A stretch of DNA of 64,000 nucleotides. Origin: Escherichia phage AV109. The DNA is taken from sequence record OR352939.1. One strand, written 5' to 3'. The position numbers and the translations under genes are program-made. The notes beneath the pieces were generated by a model. That model saw only the letters and a list, made by a program, of their open reading frames with translations, did no database searches and was not told the DNA's origin. Shown here piece after piece: positions 2,345 through 53,137 of the stretch (positions within the stretch are counted from its first letter, which is position 1; each line of letters starts with the position of its first letter).

Positions 2345-4327
2345 ATGGCACTTCTCTCTCCGGGCGTTGAGCTCAAAGAAACTACCGTACAGAGTACTGT
2401 AGTTAATAACTCCACTGGTACTGCTGCCCTGGCTGGAAAATTCCAATGGGGACCTGCATTCCAGATTAAACAAATCACTGATGAAGTTGCATTGGTTGAT
2501 ATGTTTGGTACTCCTAATACGGATACAGCAGATTATTTCATGTCTGCTATGAACTTCCTTCAATATGGTAATGACCTTCGTGTCGTACGCGCAGTTGATC
2601 GTGATACTGCTAAGAACTCATCTCCTGTGGCAGGCAATATTGAATTCACAATCTCTGCTACTGGTAGTAACTATGCGGTTGGTGATAAAATTATCGTTAA
2701 GTATTTGACCGAAACTGTTGAAGCAGATGGTTATGTCACTTCAGTTGATGTCGATGGTAAAATTCTTAACATTTATATCCCAACCGGTAAAATTATTGCT
2801 CGTGCAAAAGAAATTAATGAATATCCGGCATTGGGTTCTAACTGGACCGCCGAAGTTGCCAGTTCTTCTTCTGGACTTTCTGGCGTTATTACAATTGGTT
2901 CTATCGTAACTGATTCGGGTATTCTGTTAACTGAAGTTGAAACTTCTGAAGAAGCTATTACTTCTCTAACTTTCCAAGAATCTATTAAAAAATATGGTGT
3001 CCCAGGCGTAGTTGCTCTTTATCCTGGTGAACTTGGCGACCAGCTCGAAATTGAAATCGTATCTAAAGCAGACTATGACAAAGGTGCTTCAGCCCAGTTA
3101 AAAATTTATCCTGATGGTGGTACTCGTGCATCTACTGCTAAAGCAATCTTTGGGTATGGCCCACAAACTGATGACCAATATGCAATTATCGTTCGTCGTA
3201 ACGATGCTGTAGTTCAGAGCGTAGTTCTTTCTACTAAACGCGGTGAACGAGATATTTATGGTAGTAATATCTTTATTGATGATTTCTTTGCTAAAGGCGC
3301 AAGCAATTATATTTTCGCTACTGCACAAGGTTGGCCAAAAGGTTTCTCTGGCGTAATCAAACTGGGTGGCGGCTTATCATCTAATGAAACTGTTGACGCT
3401 GGTGATTTAATGGAAGCTTGGGATTTGTTTGCTGACCGCGAATCTGTTAATGCGCAGTTGTTTATTGCCGGTTCTTGTGCAGGTGAATCTTTAGAAGTTG
3501 CTTCTACAGTTCAGAAACATGTTGTAGCAATTGGTGATTCTCGCCAAGATTGCTTGGTTCTTTGCTCACCGCCACGTGCAACTATAGTCGGTATTCCTGT
3601 TAATCGTGCAGTTGATAATCTGGTTGATTGGCGTACTGCGTCAGGAACTTACACTGATAATAACTTTAATGTAAGTTCTACTTATGCCGCTATTGACGGT
3701 AACTATAAATATCAATATGACAAATATAATGATGTGAATCGTTGGGTTCCATTAGCTGCTGATATTGCTGGTCTTTGTGCTCGCACAGACAATATTTCTC
3801 AGCCTTGGATGTCTCCTGCCGGTTATAACCGTGGACAAATTCTTAACGTTATTAAGCTTGCAATTGAAACTCGCCAAGCGCAGCGTGATCGTTTGTACCA
3901 GGAAGCTATTAACCCTGTTACTGGTACCGGTGGTGATGGGTATGTTCTGTACGGTGATAAAACTGCCACTTCTGTTCCTTCACCATTTGACCGTATTAAC
4001 GTTCGTCGTTTGTTCAATATGGTTAAAACGAACATTGGTTCAGCATCTAAATATCGCCTGTTTGAATTGAACAACGCATTTACCCGTTCTTCTTTCCGTA
4101 CAGAGACTTCTCAATATCTACAGGGTATTAAAGCTCTCGGTGGTGTATATAACTTTAAAGTTGTTTGTGATACTACCAATAACACACCAGCAGTTATCGA
4201 CCGTAATGAGTTTGTAGCTACTTTCTACTTACAACCTGCAAGATCGATAAATTATATTACGTTGAACTTTGTAGCAACAGCAACGGGTGCCGATTTCGAC
4301 GAACTAATTGGTGCTGTAGGTGCCTAA
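2345..4327 (+). CDS. 18: contractile tail sheath protein (T4 gp18-like)
   Basis: 660 aa, late-gene position after terminase, late promoter and SD upstream. Confidence 0.95.
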   Translation: MALLSPGVELKETTVQSTVVNNSTGTAALAGKFQWGPAFQIKQITDEVALVDMFGTPNTDTADYFMSAMNFLQYGNDLRVVRAVDRDTAKNSSPVAGNIEFTISATGSNYAVGDKIIVKYLTETVEADGYVTSVDVDGKILNIYIPTGKIIARAKEINEYPALGSNWTAEVASSSSGLSGVITIGSIVTDSGILLTEVETSEEAITSLTFQESIKKYGVPGVVALYPGELGDQLEIEIVSKADYDKGASAQLKIYPDGGTRASTAKAIFGYGPQTDDQYAIIVRRNDAVVQSVVLSTKRGERDIYGSNIFIDDFFAKGASNYIFATAQGWPKGFSGVIKLGGGLSSNETVDAGDLMEAWDLFADRESVNAQLFIAGSCAGESLEVASTVQKHVVAIGDSRQDCLVLCSPPRATIVGIPVNRAVDNLVDWRTASGTYTDNNFNVSSTYAAIDGNYKYQYDKYNDVNRWVPLAADIAGLCARTDNISQPWMSPAGYNRGQILNVIKLAIETRQAQRDRLYQEAINPVTGTGGDGYVLYGDKTATSVPSPFDRINVRRLFNMVKTNIGSASKYRLFELNNAFTRSSFRTETSQYLQGIKALGGVYNFKVVCDTTNNTPAVIDRNEFVATFYLQPARSINYITLNFVATATGADFDELIGAVGA

Positions 4328-6823: not shown

Positions 6824-7248
6824 TGTATCTTATCCCTGAATCTTATGAATTGGTACTCGAAAATGTCGAAGCACTTATTCCTGAAGCACAGGGCCGAATC
6901 GATGCATTGTCTTCTGCTCTCGATATTGACGATATAAATACTATTATCGAGAACATGCTTGAAACTGAAACGGATTTAGCTGTTGCAATGGCTTCCATTA
7001 TTAATGAAGAACAGTTAAATGAGTTTATCGTTAAACATGTTTCTTCTCGTGGTGAAGTCACTCGCACTAAAGACCGTAAAACTCGTGAACGTAACGCGTT
7101 CCAAACCACTGGTCTTTCTAAAGCAAAACGTAGACAAATCGCTCGTAAGGTCGTTAAAGCTAAAAAAGCTAACCCTTCAGGCCAAGTTAAAGGCTTGCGT
7201 AAGCGTAAAAAAGCTCTTAAACGTCGTAAAGCATTAGGATTAAGCTAA
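6823..7248 (+). CDS. 68: prohead core protein (T4 gp68-like)
   Basis: 141 aa, basic C-terminus, position between 67 and 21. Confidence 0.75.
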
Positions 7249-13725: not shown

Positions 13726-13844
13726 AAATCACCATTATAAATAATAATATCAAAATAATTAGCAGAGACTCTATCTCCGACCCGATGTTTAATTTGAATG
13801 GATAGAACCTAGATTCATTATACCATCAAAAAATGTAAAGCATA

Positions 13845-15528: not shown

Positions 15529-16197
15529 TTATTTTAATGTTACGAAAGAAGAATTACGAGTTTCACGAATTAGAACTGATCCATCGCGATTAATATAATA
15601 AATTAAGCTAAATAATGTTTGGTGAGCAGAAGCGTGCACAAAACTGGTTGGGCGAGATTTCCAATCTGGAGTTTCGGCTATCCATTGATAAATCCACCAA
15701 GGAACAGTAACATATCCCGGGCCTTTGCCTAATTTAATGAGTGTAGGACTAAAATTTTCAGGCAGAACAAATTTTACTTCTTTATTTACCTCTGACTCAG
15801 GCTCTTTTTCAGATTCAACAATCTGAGTAATTGCTTCTTCGAATTTATCGTGGTCGAATTCTTTTTCTTGTTCGACAACTTCTAATACTTCAGCTTGTTC
15901 TGTTGGAGAATCAAACAACAGAATAGCTTCTTCTTTAACTTCTTCGTTGGTGAAATTAACACCGTCCACATCATCTGCGGCAGTAATTAAATCGGTGATA
16001 GATAATCCATCAGTTTCAGGTAATGGTTCATCAGCCAGTGCGTTAAGAGCTTCTTCGATATCAATAACAATATTATCGAATGATTTTGTTTTCTTAACAC
16101 TAATGCCAAATTGTTCCGCATATTCAAACAGTTTAGCTTTGGCTTCCTTTTTATCAGAAAGAGCACGTAACTCTTCAATATAGTCTTTATCGATCAT
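15529..16197 (-). CDS. inh: prohead protease inhibitor Inh-like
   Basis: 222 aa acidic protein between hoc and uvsW, as T4 inh. Confidence 0.65.
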   Translation of the reverse strand: MIDKDYIEELRALSDKKEAKAKLFEYAEQFGISVKKTKSFDNIVIDIEEALNALADEPLPETDGLSITDLITAADDVDGVNFTNEEVKEEAILLFDSPTEQAEVLEVVEQEKEFDHDKFEEAITQIVESEKEPESEVNKEVKFVLPENFSPTLIKLGKGPGYVTVPWWIYQWIAETPDWKSRPTSFVHASAHQTLFSLIYYINRDGSVLIRETRNSSFVTLK

Positions 16198-16210
16198 GGT
16201 ATTTCCTCAT

Positions 16211-16218
16211 TATAAATA
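16211..16218 (+). promoter_or_regulatory. T4-type late promoter TATAAATA for uvsW
   Basis: exact TATAAATA 30 nt upstream of the uvsW ATG. Confidence 0.65.
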
Positions 16219-16247
16219 TAACTATATTTATTACATGGTAATTTGAC

Positions 16248-17762
16248 ATGACTGACATTAAAGTACATTTTCATGATTTTAGTCACGTGCGCATTGAATG
16301 CGACGAAAGTACGTTTTACGAACTTCGTGACTTTTTTAGCTTTGAAGCCGATGGGTACAAATTCAACCCGCGTTACAAATATGGGAACTGGGATGGTAGA
16401 ATTCGTCTTTTAGATTACAACCGTTTGTTACCATATGGACTTGTAGGACAAATAAAAAAGTTCTGTAGCAATATGAGTTATTCTGTATGGATTGACCCTA
16501 AAATCTTTGAGACCGAAGACCTTACCAGAGAAGATTTTGACGCATGGCTTTCTAAACAAGAAATTTATTCGGGCAACGCCAAAATCGAACCACATTGGTA
16601 TCAAAAAGATGCAGTGTATGAAGGACTAGTTAATCGTCGTCGAATTTTAAACCTTCCGACATCAGCAGGTAAATCACTAATCCAAGCACTTTTAGCTCGA
16701 TATTATCTAGAGAACTATGAAGGTAAAATTCTCATTATCGTCCCTACAACAGCATTGACAACCCAGATGGCTAATGATTTTGTTGATTATCGCTTGTTTA
16801 GTCATTCGATGATTAAGAAAATTGGCGGTGGTGCTGATAAAGCAGACAAATCTAAAAACGACGCTCCAATTATTGTTGGCACATGGCAAACGGTAGTTAA
16901 GCAGCCTAAAGAATGGTTCTCTCAGTTCGGTATGATGATGAACGATGAATGCCACTTAGCAACAGGCAAAAGTATTTCTTCAATCATCGCAGGATTAAAT
17001 AATTGTATGTTTAAATTCGGTTTATCTGGCTCATTAAGAGACGGAAAAGCCAATGTAATGCAGTATGTAGGCATGTTCGGCGAAATCTTCCGTCCTGTTA
17101 GCACGTCTAAATTAATGGAAGATGGACAGGTAACTGAGCTTAAGATTAATAGTATTTTCCTTCGTTATCCGGACGAATTCACCGTTAAATTAAAAGGTAA
17201 AACATACCAAGAAGAAGTTAAAATTATTACCGGACTAAAACGTCGTACAAAGTGGATTGCTCAACTTTCGGTCAAATTGGCTAAGAAAGACGAGAACGCC
17301 TTTGTAATGTTTAAACACGTTACACACGGTAAAGAAATATTTGAAGCTATTAAAGAGCTTGGATACGAAAAAGTTTATTACGTATCAGGTGAAGTTGATA
17401 CTGAAACACGTAACGCGCTTAAAGTCATGGCAGAAAATGGTAAAGGCATTATTATTGTCGCATCATATGGAGTATTCTCTACTGGTATTTCAGTCAAGAA
17501 TCTTCATCATGTTATTTTTGCTCATGGTGTTAAATCAAAAATTATCGTACTTCAAACCGTAGGTCGTGTGCTTCGCAAGCATGGTTCTAAAGCTGTTGCT
17601 ACAGTTTGGGATCTCATCGACGATGCAGGTGTAAAACCTAAATCATTAAATACTAAAAAGAAGTATACTCATCTTAATTACTTGTTAAAACACGGTATTG
17701 ATCGTATCCAACGTTACGCTGATGAGAAATTTAACTATGTAATGAAAACAATTAATTTATAA
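16248..17762 (+). CDS. uvsW: UvsW SF2 DNA helicase
   Basis: 504 aa; Walker A-like PTSAGKS and DECH box; matches T4 UvsW in size and position. Confidence 0.93.
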   Translation: MTDIKVHFHDFSHVRIECDESTFYELRDFFSFEADGYKFNPRYKYGNWDGRIRLLDYNRLLPYGLVGQIKKFCSNMSYSVWIDPKIFETEDLTREDFDAWLSKQEIYSGNAKIEPHWYQKDAVYEGLVNRRRILNLPTSAGKSLIQALLARYYLENYEGKILIIVPTTALTTQMANDFVDYRLFSHSMIKKIGGGADKADKSKNDAPIIVGTWQTVVKQPKEWFSQFGMMMNDECHLATGKSISSIIAGLNNCMFKFGLSGSLRDGKANVMQYVGMFGEIFRPVSTSKLMEDGQVTELKINSIFLRYPDEFTVKLKGKTYQEEVKIITGLKRRTKWIAQLSVKLAKKDENAFVMFKHVTHGKEIFEAIKELGYEKVYYVSGEVDTETRNALKVMAENGKGIIIVASYGVFSTGISVKNLHHVIFAHGVKSKIIVLQTVGRVLRKHGSKAVATVWDLIDDAGVKPKSLNTKKKYTHLNYLLKHGIDRIQRYADEKFNYVMKTINL

Positions 17763-18053: not shown

Positions 18054-18079
18054 AAAAACCATAGGCAAAAAAGGTAACA

Positions 18080-18996: not shown

Positions 18997-19395
18997 TTAC
19001 ACTCTATTGCTTGACGCTAACTGAAGTTTAATTTGTTCAATATCGTCAGGGTTGTCTACGACCGAAAATCTAATCTCTACTATAACCGTATAGTCATCAT
19101 ATACTGGCGTTACACTTACAGAAAGTTTGTCGATGCGTGGCTCATAGTTACGAACAGCTGCCTGGATATTACGCTCAATCGTATCGGCTGTAAGTGGTGT
19201 CATGTTCTCGAAAAGTTCATCAACCAAATCGCAACCAAATTCAGGGTCGAAGGGGCGTGAGCCTTTTCTAGTTGTCACTATGCCAAGAAGACTATTTTTA
19301 ATAGAACGAAGTCCTACAGAACGAGCAACGTCCTTGTTCCAATCCATACGCATTTCTGGGTCGATATCTGAATAAAGTTTATTGATATTAGACAT
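18997..19395 (-). CDS. 25: baseplate wedge protein (T4 gp25-like)
   Basis: 132 aa, same length as T4 gp25, overlaps gene 26 stop. Confidence 0.88.
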   Translation of the reverse strand: MSNINKLYSDIDPEMRMDWNKDVARSVGLRSIKNSLLGIVTTRKGSRPFDPEFGCDLVDELFENMTPLTADTIERNIQAAVRNYEPRIDKLSVSVTPVYDDYTVIVEIRFSVVDNPDDIEQIKLQLASSNRV

Positions 19396-20021
19396 TATAG
19401 TAACTCAAAGAATTCTTTGAGGCCTCGTATTGTGTGAACGTGTGACGCCCCACATTTGGGACATTTAATAGGGGTTGCCAGATAAATTGATGGCGACACC
19501 AAAAGATTTTTAATATTGATCATATCATCTTCTGTTATAAGGCCGTAAAGGTCGTTTATTTCTGCTTCAGTTAAATCTTCAACAGGGATGGACTCTCCAT
19601 TGACAAAAACGGCCTCAATACATGAAGCAATCATTAATGCGATATTTTTATCGTCAAATAATTTAGGTTGACGGAACTTAATTTTAATACCACTAAACGA
19701 ATACCAGGGATCGGCCTGTTCATCTAATTGAGTGTGCAATAAATTCATATAGACTTGAAATGAATGCCCACAGGAACAATTCCAGGTGTGTTCTTGATTC
19801 ACTTCACCTAATGAATGTGCCCACAGATTTACCAACAATAACTCGGCTTCTTGTTTAGTCAAGTTTTTAGCATTAGAGCAATTAGTGATAATATTGTTCA
19901 CTGCGGATTCAATAGTACCGGTAGCCCGCGCACCTATGAGTCCTAAATATTCTTTTAAAGTAAAGGCTCTACAATTCACTTCTTTATCGCCTAAACGTAC
20001 TGTAAACGTATATTTGTACAT
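19395..20021 (-). CDS. 26: baseplate hub protein (T4 gp26-like)
   Basis: 208 aa, same length as T4 gp26, divergent from gene 51. Confidence 0.88.
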   Translation of the reverse strand: MYKYTFTVRLGDKEVNCRAFTLKEYLGLIGARATGTIESAVNNIITNCSNAKNLTKQEAELLLVNLWAHSLGEVNQEHTWNCSCGHSFQVYMNLLHTQLDEQADPWYSFSGIKIKFRQPKLFDDKNIALMIASCIEAVFVNGESIPVEDLTEAEINDLYGLITEDDMINIKNLLVSPSIYLATPIKCPKCGASHVHTIRGLKEFFELL

Positions 20022-20039
20022 GTTAACTCCTTTATTGTG

Positions 20040-20047
20040 TATTTATA
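20040..20047 (-). promoter_or_regulatory. T4-type late promoter (TATAAATA on minus strand) for gene 26
   Basis: plus-strand TATTTATA 19 nt upstream of the gene 26 start; overlaps the gene 51 promoter. Confidence 0.65.
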
Positions 20048-20051
20048 AATA
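20044..20051 (+). promoter_or_regulatory. T4-type late promoter TATAAATA for gene 51
   Basis: exact TATAAATA 18 nt upstream of the gene 51 ATG. Confidence 0.65.
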
Positions 20052-20068
20052 ATAGAAAAGGAGTAATT

Positions 20069-20821
20069 ATGGCTAATATAATTCGTTGTAAATTACCGGA
20101 TGGTGTTCATCGTTTCAAGCCGTTCACCGTAGCGGATTATAGAGACTTTTTACTAGTTAGAAATGATATCGAACATCGTTCGCCACAAGAACAAAAAGAA
20201 ATAATTGCCGATCTGATTGATGATTATTTTGGCGAGTATCCTAAAACATGGCAACCATTTATATTCCTGCAAGTTTTTGCAGGCTCTATAGGCAAAACAA
20301 AAGTTCCCGTTATTTTCACTTGCCCTAAATGCTCTAAAGAAAAAACTGCACCATTTGAGATATATCAAAAAGAACTAGTCGAACCTGAACTTGATGTTGC
20401 TGGTATAAAAATACGTTTTTCTTTCCCTGAAAAGTTTTATGACAACAAGGCATTAATGATAAGTGAAAACATAAAAGAAATATATTATAATGATGAATGG
20501 TACCCATGGAATGATTTGACTGAAGAGAACCAAATCCAAGTAATAGAAGCAATAGACATTGACTCGCTCGAGAAGGTTATTGCTTCTATGAATCCTATTA
20601 ATTTGACCCTTAGATTAGGTTGTTGTGAACGACATGTTAAAACATATACTGATATCTTAGAGGTTTTTAAATTGTTAGTTAACCCTGATGAGATTTTTAC
20701 ATTCTATCAGATAAACCATTCACTAGTAAAGAGCCAATACACATTGGATTCTATTATGCAAATGATTCCTGTTGAACGTGGTATTGCTTTAACATTAGTA
20801 GAAAAGGACCATAAAAAATGA
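20069..20821 (+). CDS. 51: baseplate hub assembly protein (T4 gp51-like)
   Basis: 250 aa, position and size as T4 gp51. Confidence 0.88.
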
Positions 20822-21990
20822 AAGTATTCCAACGTCCAGGATATCCTAACTTAAGCGTTAAATTATACCAAGATTATTCGGCTTGGCAAGAAAATAGATA
20901 CGTTGAACTCGCGGCAACAATAACAACTTTAACCATGCGAGATTCGCTATATGGAAGAAATGAAGGGATTCTTCAATTTTATGACACTAAAAACATCCAC
21001 ACTAAAATGGACGGTAGACAGATAGTTCAAATCTCTGTTTCAAATTCAAACACACCTCTCCAAGTTAGAACTCGAATTTATGGATGTAGACATTATTCTG
21101 TGTCTGTGGACTCAAAAGGTGACAATATTATTGCAATTGAGCTTGGAACAATACATTCTATAGAGAACCTTAAATTTGGGCGTCCATTCTTCCCGGACGC
21201 AGGCGAATCTATACGTGAAATGTTAGGTGTCATATACAAAGACCGTGCGTTAATTACTCCGCCAATAAACACTATTAATGCTTATGTTCCTGATATCCCT
21301 TGGACAAGCACATTTGATGATTATTTGGCATATGTCAGAGAATTAGGACTTGCTACAGCGAGTGATAAGTTCGTATTCGTATGGCAAGATATTTTAGGCG
21401 TAAACATGATTGACTACGATACTCTTATTGGTCAGGAAGGCATTAAGATGGTTGTAGGTGAGCCAAATACTGTAGGTCAGTATATTCAAGAGCTTGAGTA
21501 TCCATTAGTATGGGATTTCACCTGGATGACTAAAGCTAACCAATTTACAAGAGACCCTATTAAAAACGCCACGATATTCGCTCATTCATTTTTAGATACA
21601 TCTATTCCGGTTATTGTTACAGGCGATGGTGATAATGCTATTCTTGTGTCAAGATCCGGTGGATATTCCGAAATGACCTATCGTAATGGATTTGAAGAAG
21701 CAAGTCGTCTTCAGACAATGGCTCAATATGACGGATATGCTAAATGCACTACTACAGGCAATTTTAACATAACGCCTGCTACTAAAATTATATTTGTTGA
21801 CCAAAAGAACCAATTCAAATCCGAATTTTACGTAGATGAAGTTATTCATGAGTTATCAAATAACAACTCACAAACTCATCTGTACATGTTTACCAACTCA
21901 ATGGTGTTAGAACCTGTTAACCCAGTTAAGGTTAAAAATGAACTTAAATCTGATTCTACCTCTAAAGAAAATAATTCTACCACAGTCTAA
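20818..21990 (+). CDS. 27: baseplate hub protein (T4 gp27-like)
   Basis: 390 aa, overlapping ATGA junction with gene 51. Confidence 0.92.
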
Positions 21991-51861: not shown

Positions 51862-52537
51862 AGTTCCATCCAGGCCATTTTGAAGATTTAAGTCTATATG
51901 TAACTAAAGACGCAGAAATATTAAAAACATTTGAAACTTCTTTACACGAGGCGTATTTTATACCATCAATAATTATAGGTTTTTGTTTTTTAATAGTTCT
52001 TTCTTTAGAATGCGGCTTTGAATTTGCTATTCTAAGAGCTTCTTTGGTTGAATCAGGCATCGGCTTATTCGTTTTTCGCCCTTTTCGGACTTTACTCAAG
52101 GCCAATTTGTGAGCTTCAGATAGTTTCTTACCCTTATTAGGTGACGGTATTTTTCTTTCTAGTCTTGTTTTAGATACTTTAGCCTTAGTCTCTTCAGATC
52201 TAGGTTTACCTAATTTAGAAAGTGAAATAGACCTTTTAGCTTCATCACTTTGTTTTTTACCAGGACCACCTTTACCACCGGGAACTAAGTTATAAGTATC
52301 ATCTCGCAAAACAAAATCTTCATTAACCAATTCTGCTTCTTTTTTATAGGCGTCCTTGTCATTATCATATTCATAAAGAATTTCGGTATAAAAATTTTTT
52401 AGTCCATATTTAGCTTTGGCCGCTAATATAGCGCGGCCTGATCCAATATACCAATCTTTCTCTTTATGTTTTTTGTGTACGCCTATATAAATTTTACCAT
52501 TTATTTTATTGGTAGTTTTATACACAACGTATTTCAT
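51854..52537 (-). CDS. free-standing GIY-YIG homing endonuclease (Seg-like) between genes 33 and 59
   Basis: N-terminal YKTTNKINGKIYIG GIY-YIG motif, NUMOD-like Lys/Ser repeats, C-terminal DNA-binding region; ATGA overlap with gene 33 and 8-nt overlap with gene 59. Confidence 0.85.
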   Translation of the reverse strand: MKYVVYKTTNKINGKIYIGVHKKHKEKDWYIGSGRAILAAKAKYGLKNFYTEILYEYDNDKDAYKKEAELVNEDFVLRDDTYNLVPGGKGGPGKKQSDEAKRSISLSKLGKPRSEETKAKVSKTRLERKIPSPNKGKKLSEAHKLALSKVRKGRKTNKPMPDSTKEALRIANSKPHSKERTIKKQKPIIIDGIKYASCKEVSNVFNISASLVTYRLKSSKWPGWNYD

Positions 52538-52872
52538 AATAAGAAATCTAACGTATTAGTTTTTTCACCACGAGCAACTGATGGGCGAAGCATGTTTTCG
52601 TCAATTGCTTCGCTTGTAATTTTTTCAACAATTCCTGTAGGAATAAATTTAGCAAATTGTGTTTCTGGAATAGAATTTTCTTCCAAGAAAGCAGTTGTTG
52701 CTTCTAAATAAGACATACCAAATTGTTCAACCATGGATTCGATAATGAATCCGTTTTCTTGTCGGTCAAGCAATTTAGCGATATCATCTTTATCGTGTTT
52801 TACTGCTAATTCTTGTTCAGATAAACCGGCCTCATCAACCGGTTTAATATCACTTAGTGAAAACTGTGTCAT
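52534..52872 (-). CDS. 33: late transcription accessory protein (T4 gp33-like)
   Basis: 112 aa, same length as T4 gp33. Confidence 0.9.
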   Translation of the reverse strand: MTQFSLSDIKPVDEAGLSEQELAVKHDKDDIAKLLDRQENGFIIESMVEQFGMSYLEATTAFLEENSIPETQFAKFIPTGIVEKITSEAIDENMLRPSVARGEKTNTLDFLL

Positions 52873-53137
52873 AAAGCTCGACTACCTCTTCGTTTTCAGC
52901 TTCAAATTGGTCACGAGCGTCTTTATGATAAAGAGCTAACAAACGATTAAACATTTTTCCATCGACGCCAAGCTCTTCTTTAGCACGAGTACGAATGTCT
53001 TTAATCAGTTCATTATAACCAGAAATTTTAAGTTTGTTATCGGAAGCTTCTTTGACTAGTTTAGCCAGTTCTTCACCATGCACATCTTGATTAAATTCAA
53101 CTGCTTCTTTCTTAGCCATGTTTACCTCAGAATTCAT
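52850..53137 (-). CDS. dsbA: double-stranded DNA-binding protein DsbA-like
   Basis: 95-aa ORF between rnh and gene 33, as T4 dsbA. Confidence 0.75.
   Translation of the reverse strand: MNSEVNMAKKEAVEFNQDVHGEELAKLVKEASDNKLKISGYNELIKDIRTRAKEELGVDGKMFNRLLALYHKDARDQFEAENEEVVELYDTVFTK

Follow-up and report, generated by a model that had tools for sequence, protein, structure and literature searches.

A perfect 12-bp palindrome at the gene 26/51 junction of Escherichia phage AV109, very probably a compact bidirectional late promoter

The divergent gene 26/51 junction

The window considered here is a stretch of 64,000 nucleotides of Escherichia phage AV109 (OR352939.1), which on sequence comparison is a Mosigvirus. 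Over its positions 1-40000 it is 99.98% identical to Escherichia phage AV114 (OR352944.1), from which it differs by 8 substitutions and one 1-nt deletion, the latter at 18073 in the intergenic sequence between uvsW.1 and uvsY.-2, so that coordinates are moved by 1 with respect to AV114 around genes 26 and 51. The last difference from AV114 within the 40 kb compared lies at 27.7 kb, yet by ~52.5 kb the two sets of coordinates agree again, implying a compensating indel somewhere past 27.7 kb. The gene 26/51 locus itself is 100% identical to that of AV114 and 98.5% identical to that of phage RB69, and the 53-nt sequence that extends from the CAT of one gene to the ATG of the other is the same in RB69 as in the window.

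The junction separates two divergent late units. The leftward unit is headed by the gene 26 homolog (19395..20021, minus strand, ATG at 20021), which encodes a 208-aa baseplate hub protein or hub assembly chaperone, with the gene 25 homolog (18997..19395, minus strand; 132 aa, baseplate wedge) directly downstream. The rightward unit is headed by the gene 51 homolog (20069..20821, plus strand, ATG at 20069), encoding a 250-aa hub assembly chaperone, the end of which is overlapped by the gene 27 homolog (20818..21990, plus strand; 390 aa, baseplate hub), followed on the same strand by homologs of genes 28, 29, 48 and 54. The gene order, uvsY-25-26 / 51-27-28-29-48-54, is that of T4, and the names gp26 and gp51 follow the annotation of RB69, T4 and AV114. 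Both proteins match PF12322 (T4_baseplate) over their full length, gp26 with E = 4.5e-60 and gp51 with E = 4.6e-59, and both belong to phrog_150. An initial annotation, made from the DNA letters, had named the divergent genes as 26 and 51, and this assignment is borne out by the protein family matches, by the annotation of the three related phages and by the T4 gene order. In a BLASTP comparison gp26 and gp51 align collinearly from their N-termini with 25% identity (E = 2e-10), a similarity by which the two proteins are judged to be paralogs.

Genes 26 and 51 are separated by an intergenic spacer of 47 nt, inside which positions 20040-20051 read TATTTATAAATA. Read directly from the window, this 12-mer is its own reverse complement, and hence a perfect 12-bp palindrome. 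It is the union of two copies of the late-promoter octamer TATAAATA, one on the plus strand at 20044..20051, here called P51, and one on the minus strand at 20040..20047, here called P26, with the 4 bp at 20044-20047 common to both. Between octamer and ATG lie 17 nt on the gene 51 side (20052-20068) and 18 nt on the gene 26 side (20022-20039), which places the first bases of the two start codons 18 nt and 19 nt, respectively, from the octamer ends. The palindrome, the pair of octamers sharing 4 bp and the distances of 18 nt to gene 51 and 19 nt to gene 26 had all been described in the initial annotation, and each holds on re-examination: the 12-mer equals its reverse complement, both strands match the octamer exactly, and the start codons at 20069 and 20021 agree with the distances.

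The symmetry of the junction extends outward from the 12-mer. Each gene has an AAGGAG Shine-Dalgarno (SD) sequence, at 20058..20063 on the plus strand for gene 51 and at 20027..20032 on the minus strand for gene 26, and these lie in the right and left arms, respectively, of an inverted repeat. The whole CAT-to-ATG segment (20019..20071) is a 53-bp imperfect dyad in which SDs and start codons are mirrored about the central palindrome, its arms (20019-20033 and 20057-20071) being 80% complementary, although its folding as a single strand is weak (-5.3 kcal/mol, z = -2.4). This pair of 15-nt arms is the sole inverted repeat, and apart from the mirrored SDs and ATGs the two genes showed no likeness in DNA at their 5' ends. 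Because gp26 and gp51 are paralogs, the locus resembles the product of an ancient duplication in head-to-head orientation, with the promoter palindrome at the axis of symmetry.

The 12-mer occurs once in the 64-kb window, where Markov-1 or iid models predict 0.03-0.05 occurrences per 64 kb. Together with the conservation across genera described below, this expectation excludes a chance origin of the 12-mer.

Conservation across T4-like phages

The identical 12-mer is found in T4, within a 26/51 spacer of 50 nt, and its distribution was followed in two samples of related loci. The first consists of 13 divergent-pair loci from isolates, recovered by tblastn with gp51 and including two Mosigvirus loci, among which gp51 identity drops to 37-39%. 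The exact 12-mer is present at 10 of these 13 loci, corresponding to 9 of the 12 distinct genera or unclassified lineages sampled in which the pair occurs, namely Tequatrovirus, Mosigvirus, Karamvirus, Gaprivervirus, Jiaodavirus, Lazarusvirus, Muldoonvirus, Kagamiyamavirus and Gelderlandvirus. The second sample consists of 53 loci retrieved from IMG/VR with a gp51 alignment, of which 47 have the exact 12-mer, three (from Aeromonas phages) have a 10-mer, TATTTAAATA, and three (RB49-like) have a 13-mer, TATTTTATAAATA.

The limits of conservation are sharply drawn. Across 33 distinct 72-nt contexts all 12 columns of the palindrome are invariant, at 2.0 bits/column, and the 30-nt flanks average 0.44 and 0.41 bits/column; the bases at -1 and +1 of the 12-mer are already near random. 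Within the palindrome, the bases that belong to one octamer only (20040-20043 and 20048-20051) are no less invariant than the shared four. The conserved block therefore coincides exactly with one octamer plus the other, and the only other conserved blocks in these contexts are the SDs. A block that equals the union of two octamers is what a dual promoter predicts, and is not what a longer operator or a single promoter predicts. Outside the block, the sixth nucleotide past the octamer, which would be +1 for an octamer at -13 to -6, is A in 31 of the 33 for gene 51 and in 29 of 33 for gene 26. Late transcripts of the T4 type begin about 6 nt past the octamer and depend on gp55 and DNA replication, and the conserved A gives indirect support for such starts here. 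Short distances from octamer to ATG are general at the junction, the medians for 25 distinct spacers being 20 and 17 nt.

Variant palindromes in other lineages

Several lineages depart from this arrangement. At the 26/51 junction of Krischvirus (RB49-like) the 13-mer TATTTTATAAATA leaves the gene 51 octamer alone intact; a single extra T interrupts the minus-strand octamer, and at a distance of 12 nt the minus strand has a CTAAATA. The Aeromonas phages have at their 26/51 junction the 10-mer TATTTAAATA, whose base at -12 is a non-consensus T whichever way it is read, and at none of five such loci (~2.5-2.7 kb each) does a canonical octamer occur at the junction on either strand; the lone TATAAATA in the five is a minus-strand site ~1.1 kb downstream, at one locus. 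Thus two perfect octamers are not obligatory at this position. In the Slopekvirus-like Klebsiella phage Earwig_ER32 (901-2526) a tail-tube-like gene is followed on one strand by gp25, a 'hub' gene of 174 aa and a gene like gp51, so that the divergent 26/51 pair, and with it the shared promoter, is absent.

Comparable designs are also found at junctions of other genes. Between genes 4 and 48 of phage Aeh1, as between 26 and 51, mirrored SDs surround a palindrome composed of two late elements. The Aeh1 palindrome differs in being a 14-mer, TATTTAGCTAAATA, in which the heptamers TATTTAG-CTAAATA abut with 0 bp of overlap, and in being built from Aeh1's own consensus, CTAAATA, which is given as the late consensus of that phage by Nolan et al. 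2006 (PMC1524935). Mirrored SDs around a late-element palindrome also mark the ORF/gene 34 junction of RB49, which differs from the AV109 junction in its genes and in the one extra base of TATTTTATAAATA; the RB49-like phages thus have this 13-mer at both their 26/51 and their ORF/gene 34 junctions. The hidden Markov model (HMM) of Nolan et al. called both pairs, Aeh1 gene 4/48 and RB49 ORF/gene 34, in both directions (PMC1524935, Additional file 5). These overlapping pairs, RB49 144977/145030 and Aeh1 122785/122835, were considered as candidates for the 26/51 junction of the two phages and rejected, since they correspond to ORF/gene 34 and gene 4/gene 48, respectively.

Late-promoter octamers elsewhere in the window

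The octamer TATAAATA occurs at 17 sites in the window, against 7.6 +/- 2.9 expected, a number that 0 of 100 shuffles reached. For ten of the 17, a gene in the same orientation starts 17-30 nt downstream; these genes are the homologs of 18, 20, 22, 24, uvsW, uvsY.-2, 26, 51, 34 and 36, and with the exception of uvsW they are virion, assembly or late-unit genes (9 of 10). Of the canonical late promoters in the window, those of genes 26 and 51 have the smallest gaps between octamer and ATG, 18 and 17 nt, compared with 24-30 nt for the rest, and none of the other late promoters is palindromic.

A few sites are arranged differently. Three plus-strand copies of TATAAATA, at 3704-3711, 6933-6940 and 13736-13743, have no co-oriented gene beginning just downstream. 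Of the three, two are intragenic, one in the tail sheath gene and one in a prohead core/scaffold gene ~300 nt before the next gene, and the third is on the plus strand amid minus-strand genes (rnlB / 24.x), where, if active, it would give an antisense late transcript. At a second divergent junction, inh / uvsW (16195-16250), the octamer TATAAATA for uvsW at 16211-16218 on the plus strand is accompanied by a one-mismatch element, AATAAATA, on the minus strand at 16225-16232, to the right of the plus-strand element and directed left to inh. Should both be in use, the elements would point towards each other, with a crossing of a few nucleotides between their 5' ends. The class WATAAATA is not enriched overall (22 sites vs 17.6 expected), so the minus-strand AATAAATA site may be due to chance.

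The junction as a probable bidirectional late promoter

The sequence features that define a T4-type late promoter are found at the junction in both directions. The octamer is present in the transcribed orientation on both strands, just upstream of and co-oriented with the late genes encoding gp51 and gp26, and no -35 or other upstream sequence is conserved, the flanks at ~0.4 bits/column agreeing with the published description of late promoters (PMC7892883). The proteins that act on such promoters, namely gp55, gp33 and gp45 with its loader, are also encoded, gp33 within the window and the rest in AV114. The gene 33 homolog (52534..52872, minus strand; 112 aa; PF16805 Trans_coact, E = 3.5e-26) specifies a late-transcription coactivator acting in trans, and the annotation of AV114 (99.98% identical) lists gp55, gp45 and gp44/62. 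As a separate observation, the gene 33 homolog overlaps by 23 nt the 3' end of a dsbA homolog (52850-53137, minus strand; PF11126), and a dsbA-33 arrangement for translational coupling is described as conserved by Geiduschek & Kassavetis 2010.

The mode of recognition by gp55 accords with the symmetry of the site. Late elements are read by gp55 as non-template single-stranded DNA, with the bases at -12, -9 and -8 flipped (PMC7892883), and the octamer occupies positions -13 to -6 according to Nolan et al. 2006 (PMC1524935). In this register the three flipped bases of P51 are A20045, A20048 and A20049 of the plus strand, and those of P26 are the A residues opposite T20046, T20043 and T20042. The palindrome thus provides A at -12, -9 and -8 in both orientations. 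Upstream, the gp45 clamp encircles the duplex in a defined polarity, and this polarity matters (PMC7892883); the clamp lengthens the upstream footprint by 13 bp (PMC2988020).

Taken together, the 12-mer is very probably a compact bidirectional late promoter, consisting of two T4-type gp55-dependent octamers in a back-to-back arrangement, one on each strand, that share their first 4 bp. The initial annotation had likewise proposed two overlapping divergent promoters of the gp55 type, a proposal that gains support from the 12 invariant positions, the conserved A at the predicted starts, the late promoters predicted in RB69 and the presence of gp33, gp55, gp45 and gp44/62. At late times of infection, E. 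coli RNA polymerase with bound gp55 and gp33 would be activated by DNA-loaded gp45 and open the AT-rich segment in one of two orientations. In the rightward orientation transcription would start at about 20057, the A six nucleotides past the octamer on the plus strand, to give a 51-27-28-29-48-54 message. In the leftward orientation it would start within 20033..20035 on the minus strand to give a 26-25 message; here the sixth nucleotide past the P26 octamer is T in AV109, with A at the fifth and seventh, and since this is not the usual A the predicted start is uncertain by +/-1 nt. Both leaders would be very short, roughly 11-13 nt, and would begin just before the SD, and the two predicted starts would lie back to back, ~23 bp apart (22-24). 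From the octamers and their register we infer both the start sites and the activity of the two orientations in AV109.

An RNA polymerase open complex spans roughly -35 to +20. Each polymerase at the junction would consequently cover the promoter of the other, so that two open complexes should not coexist on one duplex, and mutual exclusion on a single template is, judged from this coverage, sterically expected. The suggestion of the initial annotation that transcription one way may exclude the other is physically reasonable in this steric sense; in the best-studied analogue, sigma-70 promoters with symmetric -10 elements, both directions are active and stimulate each other. On a given template the two directions would fire alternately, and because many copies of the genome are replicating, both units would nonetheless be expressed.

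Alternative explanations

One alternative is that a single orientation works, the second octamer being a by-product of the near-symmetry of TATAAATA and its gene being transcribed from elsewhere. Partial reverse matches do come cheaply, because TATAAATA is itself nearly palindromic, and the disrupted minus-strand octamer of Krischvirus indicates that one partner can be moved or lost within a lineage. In the 33 contexts, however, the bases found in one octamer only are no more variable than the four common to both, and their neighbours drift freely. Nor is there a second TATAAATA within the 47-nt spacer from which gene 26 or gene 51 could be served, each of the two being the first gene in its strand block. 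In RB69 both orientations score as late promoters, at 12.7 and 11.2. For T4, both orientations were reportedly mapped by Scarlato et al. in 1989, which also counts against the use of one orientation alone. Activity in a single direction is accordingly regarded as improbable.

It is a little less probable still that the palindrome serves primarily as an operator for a dimeric DNA-binding protein, either DsbA or an unknown late regulator, and that its likeness to promoters is secondary. The perfect dyad symmetry is what such a protein might recognize, a dsbA homolog is present within the window at 52850-53137, and T4 DsbA is reported to bind with micromolar affinity to A/T-rich sites that overlap two late promoters (PMC2988020). 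Conservation at the junction, however, ends at the octamer edges without extended half-sites, and the other late promoters of the window are not palindromic. In addition, the palindrome of Aeh1 is built from the late consensus of Aeh1 itself, and hence tracks the specificity of gp55 and not that of a separate binding protein.

That the 12-mer is a structural element (a cruciform, hairpin or bidirectional terminator) or a chance AT-rich palindrome is scarcely credible: the 53-bp imperfect dyad at 20019-20071 and its folding z-score of -2.4 would favour structure, but the hairpin is weak (-5.3 kcal/mol) and made by the mirrored SDs instead of the 12-mer, no terminator-like site is called at the locus, neither predicted late transcript spans both arms, and chance is excluded by the 0.03-0.05 occurrences expected per 64 kb and by conservation. 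The cruciform or terminator reading was rejected on its weak folding energy and the missing terminator call. A sigma-70 promoter was also considered and rejected, the sole nearby match (20053-20082) having its -10 element inside gene 51; sigma-70-like matches are at chance level, with 4 found vs 2.5 expected.

Relation to known promoters

The reading of the 12-mer as a bidirectional late promoter has precedents in both RB69 and T4. Among the 31 late promoters predicted in RB69 by Nolan et al. 2006 (PMC1524935, Additional file 5), all of which are HMM predictions, are Pl:118620 on the plus strand, with a score of 12.7, and Pl:118672 on the minus strand, with a score of 11.2. The 43-nt windows of both cover the RB69 12-mer at 118641-118652, and they match P51 and P26, respectively. 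RB69 and AV109 have the same CAT-to-ATG segment, predicted in both orientations in RB69, so that the strain alone differs (98.5% identity over the locus). A bidirectional late promoter at the 26/51 junction is therefore already known, both RB69 orientations having been on record since 2006, although the portion of that paper available (PMC1524935) contains no discussion of the overlap of Pl:118620 and Pl:118672.

T4 (NC_000866, 116428-116479) shares with AV109 the 12-mer, the divergent genes, the mirrored SDs and the short leaders. It differs in the sequence flanking the 12-mer, in the length of the spacer (50 nt vs 47 nt) and in the distances from octamer to ATG (21/17 vs 18/17 nt). A 1989 study of T4 by Scarlato, Storlazzi, Gargano & Cascino reportedly mapped overlapping late promoters from which the baseplate cluster is transcribed divergently. 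The GenBank/RefSeq records of T4 and RB69 carry no promoter features at the 26/51 locus, and the 26/51 pair is not mentioned in the available portions of reviews of T4 late transcription and tail morphogenesis. A search of the literature for genome-wide mapping of T4 late transcription start sites (TSSs) or for palindromic late promoters returned nothing specific.

The nearest comparison outside the late promoters is with bacterial sigma-70 promoters in which symmetric -10 elements overlap, with activity in both directions and reciprocal stimulation (Warman, Forrest, Wade & Grainger; bioRxiv 10.1101/2020.01.31.928960). In that set divergent TSSs are 7-25 bp apart, with 18 bp favoured and 23 bp among the enriched classes (bioRxiv 10.1101/2020.01.31.928960). 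The AV109 element resembles these promoters in that melting elements on opposite strands coincide, with an overlap of 4 bp and predicted TSSs ~23 bp apart (22-24 bp), which falls within their range. It differs in its use of gp55 instead of sigma-70, in the position of an 8-mer at -13..-6, in the 4-bp extent of the overlap, in the lack of a -35 element and in activation by a sliding clamp. The hallmarks of sigma-70 recognition, namely the -10 element TATAAT and the contact of R451 with position -18, are not those of the AV109 site, where the conserved element is the gp55 octamer; reciprocal stimulation in the sigma-70 set requires the R451 contact, for which gp55 has no known counterpart. By analogy, the 12-mer would work like a member of the symmetric bidirectional-promoter class that lies outside the sigma-70 set.

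Implications for T4-like phages

A further question is whether the overlap of the two promoters is functional, and not merely compact. Since the open complexes would be mutually exclusive and gp45 activates in one polarity only, the junction could act as a per-template toggle, in which the polarity of the arriving clamp, set by the strand that carries the nick or primer junction, would pick the direction of transcription. Alternatively, competition between the promoters could act as a coupler that fixes the ratio of the hub-assembly units headed by genes 26 and 51. Either function is considered unlikely, if somewhat less so than the rival readings of the site given above. If one of them were true, the near-absolute conservation of a 4-bp overlap across Straboviridae, in place of separate octamers in a longer spacer, would reflect selection on coupling.

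For the most part, the analysis confirms existing knowledge, in that a classical feature of T4 late transcription has been recovered from the raw sequence of an RB69-like genome. What is added is, first, a quantitative account of how far the exact 12-mer is conserved: it does not vary in 33 contexts and, among the isolates sampled, persists at gp51 identities as low as 39%. Second, the genes that the 12-mer would drive are paralogs, set in a mirror-image arrangement around it. Third, other T4-like lineages rebuild the palindromic design from their own late consensus, and do so at other junctions as well.
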